A stretch of DNA of 39,837 bases from positions 1 to 39,837 of the forward strand of contig JAICEJ010000002.1 in NCBI GenBank assembly GCA_025924215.1, read 5' to 3'. The stretch is from Candidatus Binatia bacterium. GTDB taxonomy: Bacteria; Desulfobacterota; Binatia; UBA9968. Shown piece by piece: positions 10,528-39,054 of the stretch. The notes beneath the pieces were generated by a model. That model searched no databases. It saw nothing but the letters and a program-made list of their open reading frames with translations, and was not told where the DNA came from. Positions within the stretch are counted from its first letter, which is position 1. Every line of letters begins with the position of its first letter. Position numbers and translations under genes: made by a program.

Positions 10528-12068
10528 GATTTTTCGCCGCGGAGCTGCTCGACCAAGCAGCACGAAAGCATCCAAACAAAACCGCGATCATTGACAAGGA
10601 AGAAGAGCTGAGCTTTGCGGTTCTTAACGCGCGGGTGCATGCTCTAGCCGGTCATTTGTGCAGCGAAGGCATCAAACAAAGCGATCGGGTGGGAGTGCTG
10701 TTACCAAATTGCGCGGCAATTCCACTGATTTATTTTGCTAGTCAAAAAATCGGCGCTGTGAGCGTGCTCCTTGATGCCCGATTAAGGGGCAAGGAGCTAC
10801 AGGACGTCTTATGCGATGCGGATCTCAAGCTCCTGGTTGTCCATAAGCAGCTGATCTCCGAAGTGGCCAATGTCGTCGAAGAGCTCACCCCAGTATCAAT
10901 CTGGATCGTCCAAGGAGAGGGCGAACAGTCCTTTGAAAATCGCTACGCGGCACCGTCTAGATCAGCGCTCTCGCCGCAACTGCAGGCTGACGACGAGGCA
11001 CTGATTCTTTATACTTCGGGAACCACGGGCGAACCCAAAGGCGTGGTCCTCAGTTACCGCAATCTGGCGCAGTATCCGCGTGTCATGACCGCGCTGGGCA
11101 TCACTGATTCGAGCACGATCCGAGGCTGCATCCTGCCGATGTCGCACATCGTTGGCCCGTTGGTCTGCAACGAAGTGGCGGATAAAGGATTCACTCTGGT
11201 CATTTTCGATCAAATTAACCCCGTCACCTTGTTGGACGGCATTCAGAAATATCGCATTAGTGTCTTTGAAAGCGTGCCGATTGTTTTTCAACTCCTCCTA
11301 GGGGTGCGCGATCTTTCAAAATATGACACCACGAGCGTGAAGATCGCGGCCATGATGGGGACTACGGTTCCGTTGCCACTTCTGCGCGCATTTCATTCAG
11401 CTCAGCCGCACATCGCACTTATCCAGGGTTATGGCTTGACCGAGACTTCACCGATGATCACCCTGGTTGAACCGGAGCAAGCCGAAGCCAAGTTGGGAAG
11501 TATTGGCCGTGCAGTACCGGGGATCGAAGTAAAAATCGTCGATGAGTCCGGCAGGGAACTGCCCATCGATGAACCGGGAGAAATCATCACGAGTGGTCCC
11601 CATGTGATGAAAGGTTATTTTCGCAAAGCTGAGGCCACGTCAGCGCGCATTCGTAACGGCTGGCTTTACACCGGCGATGTCGGCAAACGGGACTCGGACG
11701 GTTACTTCATCCATCTCGGTCGACTTGACGATATGATCATCACCAGCGGTCTTAACGTGTACCCCGCCGAGGTGGAAAACCTGATCTACAACTTTCCGAA
11801 CGTGCAAGAGACCATCGTCTTTGCCATCCCTGATCTTAAGCGGGGTGAGGTGATCGGTGCCGCGGTAGTGCCGCGGCCAGGCCATGCGATTGCCCCAAAG
11901 GAGTTGATAAGTTTTCTGCGCGCTAATCTGGCAAATTTCAAAGTGCCGCAACAGATTGTCATCCGTGAGTCGCTACCGCGTACCTCTTCAGGGAAAGTCA
12001 TTCGCGACAGCGAGACCTTGCTTTCGGACGGAGGAGCGAGCCCGAGCGTTTCAGTTTGGCGGAAATAA
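10470..12068 (+). CDS. AMP-dependent acyl-CoA synthetase/ligase
   Basis: AMP-binding signature LILYTSGTTGEPKGVVLS, plus GYGLTETS, YTGDVGKRDSDGYFIHLGRLDDMI and a C-terminal SSGKV. The true start may be the GTG at 10503; either start overlaps the aldolase 3' end. Confidence 0.9.
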   Translation: MVQTLREGLFAVANDIDSVGFFAAELLDQAARKHPNKTAIIDKEEELSFAVLNARVHALAGHLCSEGIKQSDRVGVLLPNCAAIPLIYFASQKIGAVSVLLDARLRGKELQDVLCDADLKLLVVHKQLISEVANVVEELTPVSIWIVQGEGEQSFENRYAAPSRSALSPQLQADDEALILYTSGTTGEPKGVVLSYRNLAQYPRVMTALGITDSSTIRGCILPMSHIVGPLVCNEVADKGFTLVIFDQINPVTLLDGIQKYRISVFESVPIVFQLLLGVRDLSKYDTTSVKIAAMMGTTVPLPLLRAFHSAQPHIALIQGYGLTETSPMITLVEPEQAEAKLGSIGRAVPGIEVKIVDESGRELPIDEPGEIITSGPHVMKGYFRKAEATSARIRNGWLYTGDVGKRDSDGYFIHLGRLDDMIITSGLNVYPAEVENLIYNFPNVQETIVFAIPDLKRGEVIGAAVVPRPGHAIAPKELISFLRANLANFKVPQQIVIRESLPRTSSGKVIRDSETLLSDGGASPSVSVWRK

Positions 12069-27456: not shown

Positions 27457-27975
27457 ATGGCGGACGAAAAGAACGAGACCCTCGAAGAAAGCAAATGGTG
27501 GATCGATCGCGGCCCGGTTAAGGAACGCGAAAAGCCGCTAGCTCCCGTTCCCGGGATTATCGAGAAGTGGGCCTACGAACTGCTCAGGGGTTACAATCAG
27601 GATCAGGCGGCGAAGAACCTCGTCGATATCAACGCGCGACTGCTCAAGGAACTGACGGTCCGGCCTGGAGAATGGGGCTACTTTTCGATGGATGTCGGAA
27701 GCTATCCGCCCGAGAAGTTGGCCAAAATCAAAACCGGCTTGCCGTTACCTCCCGGGGCCCGGGGGCTGATCGTTGACGCCGGTTATTCTGTTCGGGTTCT
27801 CATCACTGGCGAACCCGTTGGAGAGCGTTATGTGGATATCAATTTCACCGATGCGCCAGCACTGGATTATTGGGTCGATGGACAATTGGTCCGAGAGCGG
27901 GTTTTCTCAAATGTTGGTGAGGCGCTCAAGAGAATTCGAGCCGAATTGCCCAACTACCTCAAGAAATCTGAATAG
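27457..27975 (+). CDS. hypothetical protein (172 aa)
   Basis: ORF 24 nt downstream of the PhtD-like gene, with protein-like composition. No family recognised. Confidence 0.6.
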   Translation: MADEKNETLEESKWWIDRGPVKEREKPLAPVPGIIEKWAYELLRGYNQDQAAKNLVDINARLLKELTVRPGEWGYFSMDVGSYPPEKLAKIKTGLPLPPGARGLIVDAGYSVRVLITGEPVGERYVDINFTDAPALDYWVDGQLVRERVFSNVGEALKRIRAELPNYLKKSE

Positions 27976-29475: not shown

Positions 29476-29844
29476 GTGGTAAATAGCTTGAAACGCACCT
29501 ATCATATGCAAAAGAGCCTCATGGTTTCGGCGATCCTGATATTTTTCACGTTCGGCGTCTTTGCCATGAGCCTCGCGTACGAGCCTGCTTCGGAAGGGCC
29601 GTTATATACCACCGCCTCGGCCGATCACGCCTCGGGCGACGGTTTATTAGGATCCGACACCTTTGCGCAAAGACTGGCAGTCATCGGTCTGAGCGGTGAT
29701 GTTCCGCGATCTGCACAGCCGAACTTTCAAACTTATAGGATCAATTACGTCCGGGTCGTCGATCCAGTTAAGCTGGCCTTGTTCTTAGAGAACCACGTGC
29801 CCAAGGTTTCCCTTCAGATTCTCCAGTCAGTGCTGTTGGTTTGA
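29476..29844 (+). CDS. small hypothetical membrane/secreted protein
   Basis: Hydrophobic N-terminal segment LMVSAILIFFTFGVFAMSLA. The ATG at 29506 is a plausible alternative start. No family recognised. Confidence 0.45.
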   Translation: MVNSLKRTYHMQKSLMVSAILIFFTFGVFAMSLAYEPASEGPLYTTASADHASGDGLLGSDTFAQRLAVIGLSGDVPRSAQPNFQTYRINYVRVVDPVKLALFLENHVPKVSLQILQSVLLV

Positions 29845-29989
29845 TTTTTCTCATTAACTGTCGGCTTCGCTCGATTTAGCCCCGGTTCGCTGGTGCTATT
29901 CGTGGCGTTGAAGTCCTGCAGTATCCGTCTGCTGTCAGACGCAGGCGTGATCGCTACGAACACTGTTTCTATCAGAATGGAGGTTTTCA

Positions 29990-30448
29990 GTGATTGCGAA
30001 AAAACGATTCGAGGCACAGGTTTCGAATAATCATAGCCAAGGTCGGTCGCCTTTTTGGGCCAAGAGCCCTGGACATTCCAATGCCGCGTCTGAGGAAAAG
30101 GCATTTGCTGTTTTTCAATCTGACATTCTCATTCCTGAGCAGTTTCTTGCAACTTATCAAAGAACCTTCCGGCTGGATCCTGAGAAGGTGCTGATGCTGG
30201 CGGTTTTACAGGACGCTGTTACTTGCTTTCAGGAGAATATTGCAGCGACGTGCAAGAGAAAGCGGGCGCTTTATCAAGAGGCCGAGGAATGGTTTGACGC
30301 CGAGGACAAATCCTACCTCTTCTCGTTCGAGAACATTTGCGAGGCGCTCGGCTTCGATGTCAGCTACTTGCGGCAGGGGTTATTGCGCTGGAAGGAAAAG
30401 GCGGCGGAAAGACAAAGTCGCCAACCGGTAACCCGCGCCGCCGGCTAG
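29990..30448 (+). CDS. hypothetical protein, paralogue A of an unrecognised small-protein family
   Basis: The GTG start is preceded by GGAGG 6 nt upstream. It shares conserved blocks with the CDS at 34684..35082: LMLAVLQDAVTCF vs LMIAILKDAVECL, and YLFSFENICEALGFDVSYLRQGL vs WLFSFNNICDLLGFDPDYLRKVL. Confidence 0.7.
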   Translation: MIAKKRFEAQVSNNHSQGRSPFWAKSPGHSNAASEEKAFAVFQSDILIPEQFLATYQRTFRLDPEKVLMLAVLQDAVTCFQENIAATCKRKRALYQEAEEWFDAEDKSYLFSFENICEALGFDVSYLRQGLLRWKEKAAERQSRQPVTRAAG

Positions 30449-30648
30449 CAAATGTCAGGGTCGACCGGTTGCTTGAGATCGCTGATTTGGTGTGAGCCGC
30501 CAGGCGGCAACCGTGCTACAGAACATCTGCGGAAAAGACGGGCGCGCGCGAGAAACCGCCGGACATCGTCCAGGCGCAAATCATTGTCGGGCTTACTCAT
30601 CTTCTAAACTGCTAGCCGCATCAAATCGGCGTTGAGGAACCAAGCCAT

Positions 30649-31683
30649 ATGAAAGTAGGTTTGATCGGCCCCCGCGGCGCGGGGAAGACGACTATTTTTA
30701 ATATGCTGACGGGGCTAAATGCCCAGATCGGCGGCTACGCCGGCAAGGAAGAAGTCCATTTGGGTGTCATAAAGGTTCCCGATCCCCGAATCGATAAGCT
30801 TTCCCAAATCTTCAAACCTAGAAAAACAACCTATGCCGAGATTCGCTTCACGGACTTTCCGCCAAGTCAGGGCGAGGACAATCTCAAAGCCAACAACGCG
30901 ACGGTAGCACAGATGCGCGAGGTCGATGCCATCGCTCTGGTCTTGGGCAACTTCGGGGCGGATGCCAAACCTATTAGGGAGCTTAACAATCTTCTCACGG
31001 AGATGATTCTGGCCGACCTCGGGATCATCGAAAATCGCCGCTCCCGTCTTAAGAAAGAAAAAGCGCGCCCGCTTGAAGAGAATTTGTTGCAGCGCGCGGC
31101 TACCGCTCTGGAAAACGAAGAAAGCCTCCGCAACTTGACGTTCACTCCCGATGAAGAGAGTTTGCTTGCCGGTTTCGGGTTTTTGAGCCGTAAGCCTCTG
31201 CTCGTGTTGCTGAATCAGTCAGAAGAGCAGGCTGGGAAAGCGCTGGATTCTAATTATTTGGAAGAATTGAAACGGCGCGGCTTGGAGGGTCTGGCGCTGG
31301 CGGCCAAGGCCGAGATAGAGATCGCGCAATTGGACGAAGCTGATCGCGTCGTTTTTCTTAAAGAGATCGGCATAGAGGAACCTGCGCGAGACCGGTTCAT
31401 TCGCGCCTCTTATCGCTTGCTCGATCTGATCAGTTTTTTTACATCCGGAGAGGATGAAGTCCGAGCCTGGACCATTACTCAGGGAACCGTAGCGCGCAAA
31501 GCCGCGGGCAAGATTCACAGTGATATTGAGCGCGGCTTTATTCGAGCCGAAGTCGTCGCTTATGACGACTTCATGGCGTTTGGCAGCGAGTCCAAATGCA
31601 AGGAGGCCGGTAAGCTGCGTCTCGAAGGTAAAGATTACGTCGTGAAGGACGGTGACATCGTTCACTTCCGCTTCGCCGTATAA
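30649..31683 (+). CDS. YchF-like (OBG-HflX superfamily) GTPase/ATPase, divergent
   Basis: P-loop GPRGAGKTT and an NxxE-type G4 (LLNQSEE). The YchF-type C-terminal domain reads AWTITQGTVARKAAGKIHSDIERGFIRAEVV..GKLRLEGKDYVVKDGDIVHFRF. Confidence 0.85.
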   Translation: MKVGLIGPRGAGKTTIFNMLTGLNAQIGGYAGKEEVHLGVIKVPDPRIDKLSQIFKPRKTTYAEIRFTDFPPSQGEDNLKANNATVAQMREVDAIALVLGNFGADAKPIRELNNLLTEMILADLGIIENRRSRLKKEKARPLEENLLQRAATALENEESLRNLTFTPDEESLLAGFGFLSRKPLLVLLNQSEEQAGKALDSNYLEELKRRGLEGLALAAKAEIEIAQLDEADRVVFLKEIGIEEPARDRFIRASYRLLDLISFFTSGEDEVRAWTITQGTVARKAAGKIHSDIERGFIRAEVVAYDDFMAFGSESKCKEAGKLRLEGKDYVVKDGDIVHFRFAV

Positions 31684-31940
31684 TAGGAGCTTGATTGCTA
31701 TCCCCGCCCGGCACCGATTTACGAGTTGCTTCAGACCATCTCAGCATCAAAGATCGCCGACCGGGTAAACGGCACAACCGCAAACCGGAGTGACTTCCTC
31801 TATAAGTAGTCTATCTACAATCAGAGAAGCTCATCTCGTTATCGTAAACGCGGTCAAATGCCCCCTAAGATTCTCGTCCGAGGGTTAAAGGCATAGCTTG
31901 TCTTGGCCAAATTCTTTTGTTAGTCCTGCCCGTGTCCTAA

Positions 31941-33401
31941 ATGACCGAAAGGCTAGGCATGAAAACTTTAATTCAAGGCGGATTCGTAGTCGCATTTGAT
32001 GGGACACAACATGAGATCATCAAGGACGGCTTGGTCGTCTACAATGGCAATCGAGTCGAATTCGTCGGCAAAGACTACTCTCAGGCTGTAGACAGAAAGA
32101 TCGATGCCAACGGCTGCTTGGTTTCACCCGGCTTCATCGACACTCATTTCCATTCGGGGATCAATGCCAGCGATTACATTCTGAATGATTCCACGAAATT
32201 GGATTTCTTCGCGGCCAATTATTTAGCTCACGGCGGGCCGACTCGTGAAGGCGCTCATTTCGCTCACTTAAAAGATGTCGATGTTGGTCAACGGTTTTCC
32301 TTGATCCATCTAATAAAGAGTGGGGTAACGACTACTTTTGAGATCGGCGGTCCGGGCGCAGAGCCGGAGCGATTCGTCGACATGGTCGACGAGGTCGGCA
32401 TCCGAACGGCCACCGGCCCGAGCTATAAGAACGTCAGTTTTTTTCACGACTCCGAGGGCCGCCTAGAGTACGACTGGGATGAGGCTCGCGGCAGCGAAGG
32501 CTTGGAAAAAGCGGTCCAATTCGCAAAGCAATTTGATGGGGCTTGCAACGGGCGCATGAGCGCTATGTTGTTTCCCGGACACGTCGACTCCTGCACACCT
32601 GATTTGCTCAAACAAACGAAAAAAGCGGCAAACGATGCCGGCGTTCGAGTTCAGATCCATGCGACGATCAATTTGTTCGAATTCCATACCGTGATGCAGC
32701 GTGAACGCTGCACGCCTATCGAGTTGCTACAAAAGATCGGCTTCTTGGATCCGCAGGTTTCTCTTTCCCATTGCATTTTCATCAGCGGCCATAGCTGGCT
32801 TGCGTATCCATATGGCGATGATCTTAAAATTATCGCCGATTCGGGCGCTTCGGTTGCCTACAGCCCGCTCAAGTATCTGAAGCTAGGTATTACCATGGAG
32901 TCCTTCGACCGATATCTCAAAGCCGGAATCAACATGGGCATTGGAACCGACACTTTCCCCAAAGATATTCTGTCGGATATGCGTTACGCTGCGCTCGCCT
33001 CGCGCGTCGCCGACAAGAGCTTCATGTCCGGCCATCCGCGAGACGTGTTCAACGCGGCGACGTTAGGCGGTGCCAAGATGCTCGGGCGCAACGATATCGG
33101 AAGATTAGAAAGAGGAGCCAAAGCCGATATTGCGATCGTCAATCTCCGCGACCTCGCCTTCGGCGCGGTGCGCGATCCCATTCGATCGTTGATGGAAAAC
33201 GCCGTCAGTCGTGACGTGAGAACCGTCATCGTCGACGGCGAAACACTGGTGGACGATTACAAATATCTTCGCCTGGATGAGCAAGAGCTGCTCGACAAAG
33301 TTCAGAAAAAAGCGGAACAAGTCTGGGACAGTGTTCCCAAGTGGCATTGGACCGGAAAGAGCATCGATGACGTGGTGCCGCCAAGCTTTAAAATGAAATA
33401 A
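31941..33401 (+). CDS. amidohydrolase-superfamily protein (aminohydrolase/chlorohydrolase-like)
   Basis: Metal-binding HxH in SPGFIDTHFHSG, later QIHAT and a distal GIGTD..; 486 aa. The ATG at 31959 is an alternative start. Confidence 0.85.
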   Translation: MTERLGMKTLIQGGFVVAFDGTQHEIIKDGLVVYNGNRVEFVGKDYSQAVDRKIDANGCLVSPGFIDTHFHSGINASDYILNDSTKLDFFAANYLAHGGPTREGAHFAHLKDVDVGQRFSLIHLIKSGVTTTFEIGGPGAEPERFVDMVDEVGIRTATGPSYKNVSFFHDSEGRLEYDWDEARGSEGLEKAVQFAKQFDGACNGRMSAMLFPGHVDSCTPDLLKQTKKAANDAGVRVQIHATINLFEFHTVMQRERCTPIELLQKIGFLDPQVSLSHCIFISGHSWLAYPYGDDLKIIADSGASVAYSPLKYLKLGITMESFDRYLKAGINMGIGTDTFPKDILSDMRYAALASRVADKSFMSGHPRDVFNAATLGGAKMLGRNDIGRLERGAKADIAIVNLRDLAFGAVRDPIRSLMENAVSRDVRTVIVDGETLVDDYKYLRLDEQELLDKVQKKAEQVWDSVPKWHWTGKSIDDVVPPSFKMK

Positions 33402-33717
33402 TCTTACAGGCTGGTTAGAAGACGTAGACTAGAATTTGTTCTCTCGTCCATGCGGCAAAAAGCTGGTTACCTAAGGTAGACCGCCCGGCAGACATTTACG
33501 TGCCGCGGTTAGCGACGGAACCGCAAGCTCTCATCCGGGACCGCCGGAATCGGCGCGTCGTGTTAAGTCGATGCATGATCGCGATTTCACGTCATCATAG
33601 TTGCGGTTCGGTATTCGACACGAGTCTTGCGGGCCCAATGTTATGCCCATTTCGGTTGAACTCTCATCCGAGGAAAGATATAGCACAGACAACCAGTTCA
33701 ACTGAGAGGAGTTAATC

Positions 33718-34428
33718 GTGTCGGAATTATCAGAGATCAAAAAGAAGCTGGCTATGTCGTCCCGCATGTTGTTTAACGCGGGATTAGTCGATTACAGCGG
33801 TCATATTAGCGCGCGTATTCCCGGGTCTGATCACCTTGTTATCCTGCCACACCCGGTAAGTCGCGCTACGGTAAAACCGGACGATATGGTGATCACCGAC
33901 TTCGATGGGAAATTGATCGAAGGCAAATACAAAGCACCGTCAGAGGTTAATATGCACGCGCGGGCCTATAGAGCCCGTAGTGATATCCAAAGCGTCGCTC
34001 ATCTGCACAATCACATGATTGCCACCCTGAGCATGGTCGACAAACCGTTCTATCCAGCTTCTTCCAATCCTGGCGCTTTTTTTGGCCCGGGACCATTGCC
34101 TGTTTACATGGACCCAGCACTGATTCATACGATAGAGCAGGGCGACGCTGTGGCAAAAGCGCTTGGCGCCGCGGATGCCGTGATGCTGCGCGGTCATGGG
34201 TCCATGGTCGTCGCCCACTCGATCGAATGGGTATTCGCCGGATGTGTGGACTTGGAAGAAGCCGCGTCCCGGTTCTATAAAGCCTCATTGTTGGGACCTG
34301 TCATGATTTACAACGAGGACGAGACACAAAGGGTCATGAAACAGCGCCGCAAAGACTCGGTGGTTCAGAAAATCTGGGATCACAATGCTGCTAAGACAGA
34401 ACTCGCCGGTTTGATGAAAGGGATCTAA
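33718..34428 (+). CDS. class II aldolase/adducin-family protein
   Basis: YSGHISARIP, PSEVNMHARAY, SVAHLHNH and MLRGHGSMVVA. The GTG start is preceded by GAGGAG 6 nt upstream. Confidence 0.88.
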   Translation: MSELSEIKKKLAMSSRMLFNAGLVDYSGHISARIPGSDHLVILPHPVSRATVKPDDMVITDFDGKLIEGKYKAPSEVNMHARAYRARSDIQSVAHLHNHMIATLSMVDKPFYPASSNPGAFFGPGPLPVYMDPALIHTIEQGDAVAKALGAADAVMLRGHGSMVVAHSIEWVFAGCVDLEEAASRFYKASLLGPVMIYNEDETQRVMKQRRKDSVVQKIWDHNAAKTELAGLMKGI

Positions 34429-34618
34429 ACCACAGCACAATCGCCCTTCGAAGCGCTTAGAGGATGGTGATTGCCGGCCGGAAAGCTCTATTCAATTGCC
34501 CTAGTGCTTCAACGGGAGTCGTTCAATTGGGGCCGTTTGGGCGACGTAGAATCTCCTCTTTCGCCACTCATGCGCGGTGCCGCGTTGCGGCCCATCCCGC
34601 CTTCATTGACGATATTTC

Positions 34619-34647
34619 TTGCGTGAAAGAAACTCCCGTGATATAGC
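34619..34647 (+). promoter_or_regulatory. promoter candidate: TTGCGT, 17-nt spacer, TATAGC with extended -10 (TGATATAGC)
   Basis: Read directly from the sequence, about 37 nt upstream of the ATG at 34684. If real, it excludes the tracked TTG start at 34648. Confidence 0.35.
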
Positions 34648-34683
34648 TTGCGATTCAATTTTCACCCAGGAGTGTTTCCGCAC

Positions 34684-35082
34684 ATGTACGATGATTTCCT
34701 AGCACGAATCCTTGAGCCTGATGTTTTTCTGCCGTCTCAGTTCTACGGCACCGGCGGGTTGTCGCGACAGCTTGACGGTGAGAAACGTTTGATGATCGCT
34801 ATTTTGAAGGATGCGGTGGAGTGTCTAAATAAGTATCGCGGCGCGCGAAGTAATTTAGGAAATAGTCAGTATCAGAATGCCTTGGAATGGGTCGAGGATG
34901 AAGGTACCGAGTGGCTGTTTTCGTTTAACAACATCTGCGATCTTTTAGGATTTGATCCCGACTACCTTCGCAAGGTGCTAATCAAGAAAGAAGGCAGATA
35001 CGCAAGTCCTGTTCGCGGCAAGATCTATTCTTTTCCGGTCGCTAACAGAGCCGGTAGAGGCTCAGCGCCGGCGAGCTCGTAG
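34684..35082 (+). CDS. hypothetical protein, paralogue B of the same unrecognised small-protein family
   Basis: Conserved blocks are shared with 29990..30448 (see that feature). The ATG at 34684 has AGGAG 11 nt upstream; the tracked ORF begins at TTG 34648. The 3' end overlaps the convergent M48 protease gene by 21 nt. Confidence 0.7.
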   Translation: MYDDFLARILEPDVFLPSQFYGTGGLSRQLDGEKRLMIAILKDAVECLNKYRGARSNLGNSQYQNALEWVEDEGTEWLFSFNNICDLLGFDPDYLRKVLIKKEGRYASPVRGKIYSFPVANRAGRGSAPASS

Positions 35083-36477
35083 ATTATTCAGTTCGTCTTT
35101 TGCAGTCTGCCCACGTGCAGAGTTCTCGCCGAGAATCTTGATCGCCTTTTCAAGATCGGCCATCGCCCGCTCGTCCTCGTCCTGCAACAATAAGGACCGA
35201 GCCCTATAGTAGTAGGCATCTCCAAGCCGGTCGAGATTTCCATAGATGGTGCCAAGCCGGGCAGGCGGTTTATCCCAGAGTGGCGAAAGCTGCTGAGCAT
35301 TGAGATACGCGCCAGCCGCGGCGCGTAAGTCGTTCTCTTTTTCGAGTAATTCTCCGAGATAGAAGTAATTCAGCGGTTCCTTGGGTTCCATGCTGGAGGC
35401 CTTATCCAGCATAGCGCGGGCTGCGCCGAAGTCGCCCGAGTCGGTATATAGCCGGCCGAGGTCACGGTACAAACCTGCATCTTCCTGATTGAGTTTCAGC
35501 GCCTTCTCATAATTCGCTTTTGCTTGTGACATCTGGCCTTTATGATGCTGTGCCAGCGCTAGAAGATGAAACGCGGCGATGTCGGCAGGCGTTTGCGCGA
35601 CCAGTTTTTGAAATTCGTCGATTACTTTATCGGTCTCCTGCCGCGCCAAGCGAATAAGCACCTGGATTTTTTTAAGCTGATCAAAACCTTCGGATTTGCT
35701 TTGAACATCGCCGAGGGAGCGAATGACCAGTTGAACGTTGGCGACCCGCTCCTGAGTTATCGGATGAGTCATCATATAGGTCGGCACGTCTATCGGGTTT
35801 AAGGATCGCTCCTGATCCAGCGTCTTGAGAAATCCAAGCGAACCGGCAGGGTCATAGCCTGCCGCCGTCATGTAACGTACTCCTAACGTATCGGCTTCCA
35901 TCTCCAATTGGCGGCTATAGGCGATTTGACGAGTAGCAGAAACCGCTTGGCCAACGACGCCCGCTGCCTGTGCCCCAGCGCCGCTACGAGCCAACAGAAG
36001 CATTCCCACCAAACTCAAAAGTGAAATCGCGTCCGGACCGGACTGGCGCGCCATATGACGTCCTTTGATGTGAACTATTTCATGCCCCATGACTCCGGCG
36101 ATTTCAGAAGTGCTTTTCGCCCGTTCGATAAGGCCAGAGTAAAAGAAGACCGAACCGCCGGGCACTGCAAACGCATTTAACTGCGGATCTGCGATGACAA
36201 AGAACCGATAGTCGAATGGTTGCGGACCCATCGCTGACAGAATCCGTTGACCGATGCGTTCGATATACCGTTCGATCTCCGGATTGTTTATGTAGGTAAA
36301 GTGCTTTTTTGCCTCCCGGCGAAACTCGCGACTGATTCGTGTTTCCTCGTCTTCACCGGGCGGGCTGACACTCGGAAGCGGTGACCGGTAAGAAGCGCAA
36401 CCTGTTATGAGGAGGCAAGTCACCAACAGCCAGGACCATAGCTTCTGGCATCCACCGGACTTGCAGGTTTGAATCAC
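35062..36477 (-). CDS. M48-family zinc metalloprotease with C-terminal TPR repeats (BepA/YfgC-like), probable lipoprotein
   Basis: Lipobox LLITGC, HExxH in VMGHEIVHIKGRH and a downstream ME-ADTLG. The C-terminal ~200 aa contain TPR-like repeats (A..Y..AL..). Confidence 0.88.
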   Translation of the reverse strand: MIQTCKSGGCQKLWSWLLVTCLLITGCASYRSPLPSVSPPGEDEETRISREFRREAKKHFTYINNPEIERYIERIGQRILSAMGPQPFDYRFFVIADPQLNAFAVPGGSVFFYSGLIERAKSTSEIAGVMGHEIVHIKGRHMARQSGPDAISLLSLVGMLLLARSGAGAQAAGVVGQAVSATRQIAYSRQLEMEADTLGVRYMTAAGYDPAGSLGFLKTLDQERSLNPIDVPTYMMTHPITQERVANVQLVIRSLGDVQSKSEGFDQLKKIQVLIRLARQETDKVIDEFQKLVAQTPADIAAFHLLALAQHHKGQMSQAKANYEKALKLNQEDAGLYRDLGRLYTDSGDFGAARAMLDKASSMEPKEPLNYFYLGELLEKENDLRAAAGAYLNAQQLSPLWDKPPARLGTIYGNLDRLGDAYYYRARSLLLQDEDERAMADLEKAIKILGENSARGQTAKDELNNLRARRR

Positions 36478-36594: not shown

Positions 36595-39054
36595 ATGGCG
36601 CATAAATTTGAAGTTCCGCCAGACAAGCTGTCCTGGCGTTGCGATCTATCTTATCTGCCTTTCACGTGCACGGCGGAGATGACGCCGCTGGAGGACTTTA
36701 TCGGTCAGGATCGGGCGATTCGCGCGATCCAATTCGGCCTCGGCGTCAATAAACCCGGCTTCAATATTTTTGTTACCGGGCTAACCGGAACCGGAAAAAC
36801 CAGCATCATCAAAGCCTTTCTCAAGAAAGCAACCGTCGAGCGCGCTCCGGTTCAGGCTGATGCCGAATCGCCTGCGGACTGGTGCTATGTTTACAATTTT
36901 ATCGATCCGGATCGCCCGCAGTCTATCAAGATGCGTCGAGGCTGGGGAAGGGTCCTGAAATCCGACATGGAACAGCTGATTCAATTTCTGCAACATGAAG
37001 GCAGAAGAGTGTTTGAAGGGGACGAATTCGCACGTGATCGCCAGTCACTCGTGGAGGAGCTGCAGAGAAAGCAACAAGGCCTGATGGAGCCGTTGATGGC
37101 CGAGGCCGACAAAAACGGCTTCACGCTGCGGATGACCCCCTCGGGAGTCGCGCTGCTGCCGACTAAAGAAGGCAAACCGATGCAAGAGGCTGATTACCTC
37201 GCGTTGCCACCTGAACAGAAGAAAGCGCTGGAGGATAAGCGCTCTGAAATAGGCAAAAGCGTGGAAGAGACTTTGCGCGAAGGAAAGAAAGTAGAGCGTG
37301 AAATCAACCAAAGACTTGAAGAGCTGGAAAAAAAAGCTGGCGAATACCTGGTCGCCATCCCACTAGCGGAGTTGAGAGAAAAATATAGCGACAATCTAAA
37401 GCTGTTACGCTATTTCGATGGTGTGCGCGATCATATCTTGAACAGTCTACATCGCTTCAAGGCTGCCGAGCCTGATGCCGCCGCGGCACAGTTGCTGCCG
37501 GTGCAGATGGCGGAACCCGTAACCGACCCATTTCTTCCTTATCGGGTAAATGTCATCGTCGATAACAGCGACGTTCAAGGTCCGCCGATCATTGTCGAGA
37601 CCAATCCCAGCTATCACAATCTTTTTGGTGTGGTTGAGAAAAAGCCGGTGGTAGGCGGTTACATAACTGATTTTACGCTCATTAAAGCCGGCTCTATGAG
37701 CAAGGCGAACGGCGGCTATATCGTTCTTTACGATCGTGATGTCCTGGCCAACGCGGGTGTTTGGGAAGCACTATTGCGGGTGATAAAGAATCGGGAGCTG
37801 CGGATCGAAGAGCCGGCGGCGTTTTTCGGTTGGGCGCCGCCCCAGGGACTAAGGCCGGAACCGATCCCCACCGATACCAAAGTCATCGTTATCGGCGATC
37901 CTCACCTGTATCGCGCTTTGGCAAGCACCGATCCAGATTTCCGCGAGACGTTCAAAGTCAAAGCGGACTTTGACTTTCAAGTGGACCGTTCGCAACAAAA
38001 CATCACCGCGTTCGCTTGTTTTATCAGCGATTACTGCAGCCGCGAAGGCTTGCACCATTTCGATACCAGCGGAGTGGCGCGAGTGATCGAGCACTGCGCC
38101 AGGATGGTCGAAGATCAGGAAAAACTCTCGACCCGTTTTAGCGATATCGTTGACCTGTTGATTGAATCGGAATATTGGGCCGGCAGAGAGAAAGCGGAAC
38201 TGGTATCAGCCAAGCACGTCGAGCAAGCTATTCTCGAGAAGAGCTTCCGCTTGAACCTTTTGGAGAAACGCCTGCAGGAATTGATCACCGACGGAACGGT
38301 TCTGGTAGAGGTCGAGGGATCGGAGGTCGGACAAATCAATGGCTTGGCGGTCTACCAGATGGGTGATTTCAGTTTTGGCAAGCCGTCCCGCATCACCGCG
38401 AAGACTTACATGGGCCGGGGCGGGCTGGTCAATATCGAACGCGAAGCCAAGCTTAGCGGCAAAAGCCACGATAAAGGAGTTCTGATCCTGGGCGGCTATC
38501 TCGGCGGCAAGTATGCTCAGGAAAAACCCCTGTCGCTTTCGACGAGTATCTGCTTTGAGCAGTCTTACGATGGTGTTGACGGCGACAGCGCTTCTTCCAC
38601 CGAGCTTTATGCAATTCTCTCGAGTCTCTCGGGCGTACCGTTGAAACAAAATATCGCCGTCACCGGCTCAGTTAATCAAAACGGGGAAATTCAGGCGATC
38701 GGCGGCATCAATCGTAAGATCGAAGGTTTTTACGATCTCTGCCGGGTAAAAGGCTTGACCGGAGAGCAAGGCGTGCTCATGCCGACATCGAACTTGCGCA
38801 ATTTGATGTTGCGCCCCGATGTCGTCCAAGCAGTGGCAGAGGAAAAGTTTCACATCTACGCAGTGCAATCCATCGACCAGGGCATCGAGGTGCTGACCGA
38901 TGTTGTTGCCGGGACACGCAATACCGCAGGTAAGTTTCCAGCGGGATCGATCAACGCGTTGGTTGAACAAAAGCTGACGCAGTTTGCCGAGCGTCAGCGG
39001 CAGATCAACGCAGCGGAAGCTCGGCACGATCCTTCGCTGATGCCCGAAACCTAA
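36595..39054 (+). CDS. Lon-like protease (AAA-like domain with helical insertion plus Lon S16 proteolytic domain; LonC/COG1067-like)
   Basis: Walker A GLTGTGKTS. A charged coiled-coil insertion of about 150 aa (EELQRKQQ..EELEKKAGEY). The C-terminal S16 domain has VDGDSASSTELYAILSSLSGVPLKQNIAVTGSVNQNGEIQAIGGINRKIEGF (Ser and Lys dyad). Confidence 0.9.
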   Translation: MAHKFEVPPDKLSWRCDLSYLPFTCTAEMTPLEDFIGQDRAIRAIQFGLGVNKPGFNIFVTGLTGTGKTSIIKAFLKKATVERAPVQADAESPADWCYVYNFIDPDRPQSIKMRRGWGRVLKSDMEQLIQFLQHEGRRVFEGDEFARDRQSLVEELQRKQQGLMEPLMAEADKNGFTLRMTPSGVALLPTKEGKPMQEADYLALPPEQKKALEDKRSEIGKSVEETLREGKKVEREINQRLEELEKKAGEYLVAIPLAELREKYSDNLKLLRYFDGVRDHILNSLHRFKAAEPDAAAAQLLPVQMAEPVTDPFLPYRVNVIVDNSDVQGPPIIVETNPSYHNLFGVVEKKPVVGGYITDFTLIKAGSMSKANGGYIVLYDRDVLANAGVWEALLRVIKNRELRIEEPAAFFGWAPPQGLRPEPIPTDTKVIVIGDPHLYRALASTDPDFRETFKVKADFDFQVDRSQQNITAFACFISDYCSREGLHHFDTSGVARVIEHCARMVEDQEKLSTRFSDIVDLLIESEYWAGREKAELVSAKHVEQAILEKSFRLNLLEKRLQELITDGTVLVEVEGSEVGQINGLAVYQMGDFSFGKPSRITAKTYMGRGGLVNIEREAKLSGKSHDKGVLILGGYLGGKYAQEKPLSLSTSICFEQSYDGVDGDSASSTELYAILSSLSGVPLKQNIAVTGSVNQNGEIQAIGGINRKIEGFYDLCRVKGLTGEQGVLMPTSNLRNLMLRPDVVQAVAEEKFHIYAVQSIDQGIEVLTDVVAGTRNTAGKFPAGSINALVEQKLTQFAERQRQINAAEARHDPSLMPET

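Follow-up and report, generated by a model that had tools for sequence, protein, structure and literature searches.

In Fis, a flexible N-terminus precedes four helices, of which the third and fourth form a helix-turn-helix (HTH). AraC-type regulators contain two HTH units within about 100 amino acids (aa), and in temperate (lambdoid) phages small early HTH regulators are encoded at the head of the replication and early modules. Two genes that can be compared with these systems, here named FAM-a and FAM-b, are located in a stretch of 39,837 nucleotides (the window; contig JAICEJ010000002.1, positions 1 to 39,837) from a Candidatus Binatia metagenome-assembled genome (MAG) of 5.3 Mb in 745 contigs. 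The Binatia (Binatota) are a soil and sediment lineage of worldwide occurrence that is still uncultured (PMC8262859). FAM-a and FAM-b encode diverged members of an unnamed protein family. On balance this new family, which is class-wide, lineage-expanded and related to phage proteins, probably consists of small DNA-binding regulators of the HTH type. The two genes and the conserved parts of their products are located as follows:

29990..30448, plus strand: FAM-a, open reading frame (ORF) of 152 aa with a GTG start and a GGAGG ribosome-binding site at 29979-29983
30110..30145, plus strand: FAM-a, N-terminal conserved motif VFQSDILIPEQF (consensus LFQPDxLLPxQY), from column conservation; predicted local distance difference test score (pLDDT) 59-65
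30179..30319, plus strand: FAM-a, predicted helices 1 and 2 (PEKVLMLAVLQDAVTCFQEN ... ALYQEAEEWFDAE) and the following acidic loop; AlphaFold2 helices 64-82 and 89-103, pLDDT >95
30320..30394, plus strand: FAM-a, helix-turn-helix-like motif FSFENICEALGFDVSYLRQGLLRWK, from AlphaFold2 geometry, conservation and hhalign register
30395..30445, plus strand: FAM-a, variable basic C-terminal tail, net charge +4
34684..35082, plus strand: FAM-b, ORF of 132 aa; an alternative TTG start at 34648 would extend it to 144 aa
34918..34992, plus strand: FAM-b, helix-turn-helix-like motif FSFNNICDLLGFDPDYLRKVLIKKE, from alignment

The public gene calls for both genes give the identical 152-aa and 132-aa products, and the exact FAM-a product is called on at least 129 public contigs. 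The two proteins align by BLASTP over 93 ungapped aa with 42% identity (E 2e-26). A sequence-only reading of the window had described them as diverged paralogues that share three collinear blocks between unrelated termini and that stem from an old, maintained duplication, and each of these points was borne out. The three blocks fall within the 93-aa alignment, and the N- and C-terminal ends beyond it do not align. In a tree of 159 members FAM-a and FAM-b are not sisters; they are placed in different subclades, and a recent local duplication is therefore ruled out. Both genes are under strong purifying selection: against same-genus orthologues, where the synonymous rate (dS) was measurable and unsaturated, the ratio of non-synonymous to synonymous rates (dN/dS) was 0.06-0.07 for FAM-a and 0.04 for FAM-b. 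Congeners likewise retain the GTG start codon of FAM-a and its GGAGG site.

The framing as a pair proved too narrow. Searched in all six frames, the genome that contains the window proved to have eight intact copies, which are spread over seven contigs and share 31-49% identity with FAM-a. The family is defined here by a collinear core of about 95 aa (LFQPD..QY / PEKxLMLAVLEDA / W..FSFxNICExLG..P.YLR.GL); all eight copies carry it as LFQPDxLLPxQY, PEKxLMLAVLEDAIxCFQ, W and FSFxNICExLGxxPxYLRxGL, and all end in an Arg- and Lys-rich tail. FAM-a and FAM-b fit the family profile with E values of 2.5e-54 and 2.8e-47, and both align over every block. Members were present in 120 of 121 sampled Binatia genomes and in all 65 genera (65/65), with 1-23 copies each and a median of 8. 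Given the eight copies in this genome and 1-23 across the class, FAM-a and FAM-b are to be regarded as family members and not as a pair. In a sample of the whole phylum 16 of 201 genomes had a match, seven of them within the class (the window's own genome included); the nine genomes outside the Binatia had a single copy each, and the family is rare there. A search of 1.84 billion cluster representatives with a profile of the eight copies returned, at E<=1e-3, 10,276 clusters (50% identity), of which 5,662 had E<=1e-10. The family is thus a hallmark of the class Binatia that occurs also in some phages.

Copy number climbs with genome size (Spearman rho 0.56, p 2.5e-11; rho up to 0.8 within taxonomic families). 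Regulator families typically show such a rise, and the correlation was counted in favour of a regulatory role. Family members are annotated as 'hypothetical protein' in the source databases. A single truncated member is named 'PaaX' in a Joint Genome Institute (JGI) record; with no Pfam PaaX match among 81 diverse family members, this is regarded as a stray automatic label. Domain fusions were sought in ten longer members and none was found; long open frames in high-GC genomes may be artefacts of ORF calling.

AlphaFold2 with an alignment of 81 sequences left the N-terminus disordered and modelled the core with pLDDT >95. A core-only model from 120 sequences (pLDDT 89, predicted template modelling score 0.75) comprised helices at residues 9-28, 34-48, 58-65 and 69-88, that is, a 20-aa helix, a 15-aa helix, a 9-residue loop, an 8-aa helix, a 3-residue turn and a final 20-aa helix. 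The helices were modelled with pLDDT 93-96, and the DSSP assignment of the last two shows the tight turn (3-4 residues) expected of an HTH. The classic 20-residue HTH pattern calls for hydrophobic residues at positions 4, 8, 10 and 15, a small one at position 5 and Gly at position 9. The family sequence fits this pattern (FENICEALGFDPSYLRRGLL; consensus F-E-N-I-C-E-A-L-G-F-D-P-S-Y-L-R-x-G-L-L): position 5 is Cys in 81 of 81 members, position 4 is Ile or Val in 79, position 8 is Leu in 75 and position 9 is Gly in 60, whereas positions 10 and 15 are L/F/I and L/V/I, respectively. In FAM-a the invariant Cys117 corresponds to position 5 and Gly121 to position 9; in its helices 1 and 2, L68 and W101 are invariant and E65, A71, L73 and D75 nearly so. 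A second cysteine is present in 67 of the 81 members.

Along the last helix, the fixed residues Y126, R128, L131 and W134 alternate with the variable positions 125, 129, 132 and 133 in helical periodicity, and the signatures of this helix are specific to orthogroups and kept across genera. In the FAM-b orthogroup, V and K replace the family's G130 and W134, again conserved across genera. A recognition helix whose copies have diverged in specificity would look like this. The helix is followed by a basic C-terminal tail (family median +6 over 36 residues).

No significant match to the family was obtained in Pfam, NCBIfam, PHROG, PADLOC or PDB, in agreement with the initial view of an unrecognised family, which thus stands. 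Pfam matched neither FAM-a nor FAM-b, nor any of the 81 diverse members (0/81), and the NCBIfam scan gave nothing below E 0.09. Among the PHROGs five different families each matched one or two of 120 members without consistency, and PADLOC yielded one chance RexA match (E 0.006). In PDB sequences (hmmsearch with two profiles) the best hit was PhoU with E 1.1. Foldseek searches of PDB with the full and core models gave a best E of 2.9 (template modelling (TM) score 0.46); the non-significant matches included sigma factors, Xre, C.BclI, homeodomains and the NtrC4 DNA-binding domain. The sensitive profile searches and structure predictions therefore assign the proteins to no known family or PDB fold, although the helical core itself is confidently predicted.

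The last shared block had been likened to the HTH of AraC-type regulators. Its HTH-like character is plausible in the light of pattern, modelled geometry and genomic context, but the AraC type was rejected: FAM-a, FAM-b and the 81 members gave no Pfam HTH_18 or HTH_AraC match at E<=0.1, and the model shows a single HTH. Membership in Pfam HTH_8 (the Fis family) and Sigma70_r4_2 was likewise rejected, since neither profile significantly matched FAM-a, FAM-b or the 81 members. Direct alignment with hhalign set the family motif on the HTHs of both in the correct register with negligible probability (8.8%, P 0.004, against 15 HTH_8 domains; 3.9%, P 0.011, against 13 sigma region-4 domains, all from the window's own genome). 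As an inventory, this genome contains three Xre-type (HTH_3) and two LuxR-type (GerE) matches above the Pfam cut-off, and 17 HTH_8 and 13 sigma region-4 matches compared with eight copies of the new family.

Fold comparison gave significant matches only to uncharacterised proteins of uncultured Caudovirales (Foldseek; best E 3.7e-4, TMq 0.79). A tblastn search of the family against 50,697 GenBank phages found no match; a degenerate motif scan of IMG/VR identified true family members on five viral contigs (L089, L090, L091, L092 and L093). On L091 the family gene (10538-11173, minus strand) is the first of a leftward operon that also encodes a cytosine methyltransferase, an O-like replication initiator, DnaB and an integrase. 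The family gene of L093 (5849-6196, plus strand) lies immediately upstream of a replication initiator, and a divergent region separates it from an anti-restriction gene and a methyltransferase; further on there is a portal-type gene. The phage members thus head replication or early modules.

Taken together, FAM-a and FAM-b are independent, anciently diverged members of an unnamed family of proteins of about 130-160 aa, built from a variable N-terminus, the LFQPDxLLPxQY motif, a predicted four-helix core ending in an HTH and a variable basic tail. Their most likely function would be DNA binding as small transcriptional or architectural regulators. The long last helix may serve as the recognition helix, with a fixed buried face (Y, L, G, L, W) and one fixed Arg; its exposed positions differ between orthogroups and would then select different targets, and the basic tail may add non-specific affinity for DNA.

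Several observations weigh against DNA-binding regulators. DNA binding is inferred from the sequence pattern, the modelled geometry and the genomic context. The domain is recognised by none of the profile or structure libraries tested, and the hhalign probabilities for HTH_8 and Sigma70_r4_2 are low. The helical core is acidic (net charge about -4), with most of the acid in helix 2 and the loop that follows, and few DNA-binding domains have such a charge. Exposed and buried residues of the last helix were deduced from helical periodicity alone, and the largely conserved sequence of this helix across all paralogues would equally fit a shared protein partner. The neighbouring genes, described below, are so varied across the family that no regulon can be proposed.

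The main alternative is that the family proteins are adaptors or modulators that bind other proteins, such as RNA polymerase, sigma factors or a further conserved machine, and do not bind specific DNA sequences. In this reading the paralogues would all attach to one kind of partner through the conserved core and the N-terminal motif, and would differ in specificity through their variable tails. Such a role would account for the very high conservation of both the N-terminal motif and the last helix across paralogues, for the acidic patch in helix 2 and the loop, and for the failure of profiles and folds to recognise a DNA-binding family; the N-terminal motif, modelled with low confidence, resembles a segment that becomes ordered upon partner binding. 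We nevertheless consider an adaptor unlikely, because pattern and geometry agree with a classic HTH, the variable positions gather on one face of the last helix in orthogroup-specific combinations, the tail is basic and DNA-binding regulators are typically found where the family genes lie in phage early modules.

The genomic contexts of the other copies give no uniform picture. At the end of a uvrA-nifS-hesB-sufB-nifS operon in the window's own genome, one copy (contig C6, 23521-23979; locus L002) is flanked by genes for an Rrf2 regulator and a lipid A acyltransferase. Another is placed between a TetR regulator and a resistance-nodulation-division (RND) efflux gene, a third between a divergent LysR gene and that of an ATP-binding cassette (ABC) binding protein, and a fourth between a sigma-54 activator and a receiver-like protein. 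The remaining two are followed by an unknown gene and a sigma-54 response regulator, and preceded by a divergent luciferase-like monooxygenase gene, respectively. Four of the eight copies thus follow a transcription-factor gene (Rrf2, TetR, LysR, sigma-54 activator). This adjacency was not reproduced at 39 loci of six other Binatia genomes, where the top 25 upstream families were mostly enzymes and housekeeping proteins with one Rrf2 and one sigma-54 activator, and therefore no general link to transcription factors is claimed.

One association is robust: the best-conserved orthogroup is located at the 3' end of an iron-sulfur (Fe-S) assembly operon throughout the class (loci L002, L039-L075, L094, L095 and L110). 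In two taxonomic families of the Binatia (f1 and f2) the gene order is uvrA-nifS-hesB-sufB-nifS-Rrf2-FAM-lipid A acyltransferase, and the family gene follows Rrf2 in at least 30 MAGs; in other families of the class it follows HscA or IscS. Both cysteines are conserved in this orthogroup. Its constant position and the invariant Cys117, together with the widespread second cysteine, could point to proteins that sense or service Fe-S clusters or redox state, the founding copy being an accessory of the Fe-S assembly operon. This is highly improbable for the family, however: only one cysteine is invariant, and at its place in the HTH any small side chain would do, the second is missing from three of the eight copies in this genome, and most copies are unrelated to Fe-S genes. 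A more far-reaching proposal, which we regard as improbable, combines several of these elements: the proteins would be structurally new DNA- or RNA-polymerase-binding regulators common to Binatia and their phages, present in up to 23 copies per genome, whose founding copy in the Fe-S operon would couple Fe-S or redox state to transcription via the invariant cysteine, and whose expansion would partly replace the Xre and LuxR regulators, which are few in this genome.

Both FAM-a and FAM-b are transcribed in soil: metatranscriptome contigs cover them, although as assembler contigs these show presence only. In four soil metatranscriptome assemblies the FAM-a segment (29982-30563) had the top contig depth of a 5.8-kb region, 17-40 versus 5-12, or two to four times that of its neighbours, and one contig spans FAM-a through ychF. 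The high representation of FAM-a among the transcripts of its neighbourhood, and copies that sit among housekeeping genes, would be in line with nucleoid-associated architectural proteins that bind DNA with low specificity, as would the Fis-like layout (a flexible N-terminus and four helices with the HTH as helices 3-4) and the basic tail. This is improbable, since a median of eight diverged paralogues per genome in separate orthogroups differs from known nucleoid proteins and profile similarity to HTH_8 is absent.

FAM-a and FAM-b enclose three genes, given here as context only and not as part of the feature:

30649..34428, plus strand: enclosed genes, identified by Pfam
30649-31683, plus strand: ychF
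31941-33401, plus strand: amidohydrolase
33718-34428, plus strand: class II aldolase

The sequence-only reading had seen in this arrangement a block bracketed by the two paralogues and set off by unusually long intergenic spacers of 200, 257, 316 and 255 bp. The lengths are correct for the longest ORFs. The spacers lack conservation, though: the 200-bp spacer after FAM-a has almost disappeared in two congeners, extra genes are inserted at the long spacers within the variable inner segment (30449-34683; loci L082-L085) in three other genera (G003, G021 and G023), and no Rfam family, no shared repeats and no promoter- or terminator-like signals in excess of chance were found in them. What is conserved are the outer positions. 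Across genera of the same taxonomic family, FAM-a stays beside ribBA and a 122-aa gene of unknown function (p122), and FAM-b remains convergent with an M48-TPR peptidase gene (35062-36477, minus strand), which its 3' end overlaps by 21 nt (35062-35082) in an arrangement also kept across genera. Order, orientation and a spacing of 4.6-10.7 kb between FAM-a and FAM-b are maintained in all family-level relatives that have both on one contig. The enclosed genes vary: in G014 four unrelated genes on the opposite strand take the place of the whole ychF-amidohydrolase-aldolase block, while both flanking copies and the outer anchors remain. Conservation thus concerns the positions of FAM-a and FAM-b and not the genes between them, the neighbours of the dispersed family copies are highly varied, and the implied link to the enclosed block was not upheld.

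A functional cassette, in which FAM-a and FAM-b would act as dedicated regulators or boundary elements of the enclosed block, is accordingly very unlikely. It would explain the constant order, orientation and spacing; in congeners FAM-a abuts ychF, and the metatranscriptome contig joins the two. Against it stand the block exchange in G014, from which both copies emerged in place, and the insertions in other genera, the anchoring of FAM-a to ribBA/p122 and of FAM-b to the M48 peptidase gene, the unrelated neighbours of the other six copies in the genome, and spacers devoid of shared repeats or RNA motifs. The bracketing reflects where two dispersed members of the family are located and does not define a cassette, and there is no sign that FAM-a and FAM-b act as a unit on the enclosed genes. 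FAM-a is probably co-transcribed with ychF, whereas FAM-b, next to the M48 peptidase gene, forms a unit of its own.

Further genes of the window deserve mention. The 122-aa ORF p122 (29476-29844), always upstream of FAM-a, has an N-terminal hydrophobic segment, and a conserved 172-aa ORF (27457-27975) follows the gene of an NMT1-like binding protein; both are without Pfam or NCBIfam match. Divergent from the M48 peptidase gene lies the gene of an 819-aa LonC-type protease homologue (36595-39054) with the Pfam domains LonC_helical, AAA_32, LonB_AAA-LID and a weak Lon_C.

The locus itself is ordinary, and its value lies in the large, unannotated and class-defining family to which it leads. The claim of an unrecognised family holds, the HTH suggested by the model is plausible and the idea of a bracketing pair is not supported. 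As the family occurs in nearly every Binatia genome and is absent from the libraries tested, it likely represents a substantial share of the regulatory apparatus of the class. The definition of a domain family would annotate about 10,000 clusters that are now 'hypothetical', and the family may serve as a class-specific marker. Its members are small, confidently folded targets for structural and DNA-binding studies that do not require a cultured organism.

Among described proteins, the Caudovirales proteins A0A6J5S871 and A0A6J5LQ74 of BFVD, with others, are similar to the family in fold and length (E 3.7e-4 and 2.9e-3; TMq 0.79 and 0.70; 24% identity), and their function is equally uncharacterised. 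Region 4 of sigma-70 is, like the predicted family core, a four-helix unit ending in an HTH; FSFENICEALG of the family aligns with LSIREIAEMME of region 4 in register, and sigma factors appear among the weak Foldseek matches (E>3, TM about 0.3); unlike sigma-70, the family protein stands alone, without sigma region 2. The C-terminal domain of Fis and NtrC (HTH_8) resembles the family in its small size, its flexible N-terminal segment and its four helices, the last two of which make up the HTH (predicted in the family), and in the LG-x-x-x-x-L-x-R type of this HTH, and hhalign pairs ICEALGFDVSYLRQGLLRW of the family with AARILGVDRTTLYRKLEEY of HTH_8 in register. The family differs from HTH_8 in its much longer last helix (20 aa), its acidic core, basic tail and own N-terminal motif, its many diverged copies per genome and the absence of a profile match. 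From Cro, CII and Xre it is separated by the lack of any sequence or fold match, HTH_3 not being matched and Xre and C.BclI appearing only as non-significant Foldseek hits. The resemblance to the small early regulators of temperate phages is one of gene position: as in the Cro/CII-type arrangement, the family genes on L091 and L093 stand at the head of an operon, after a divergent intergenic region, and run into genes for the replication initiator and helicase.

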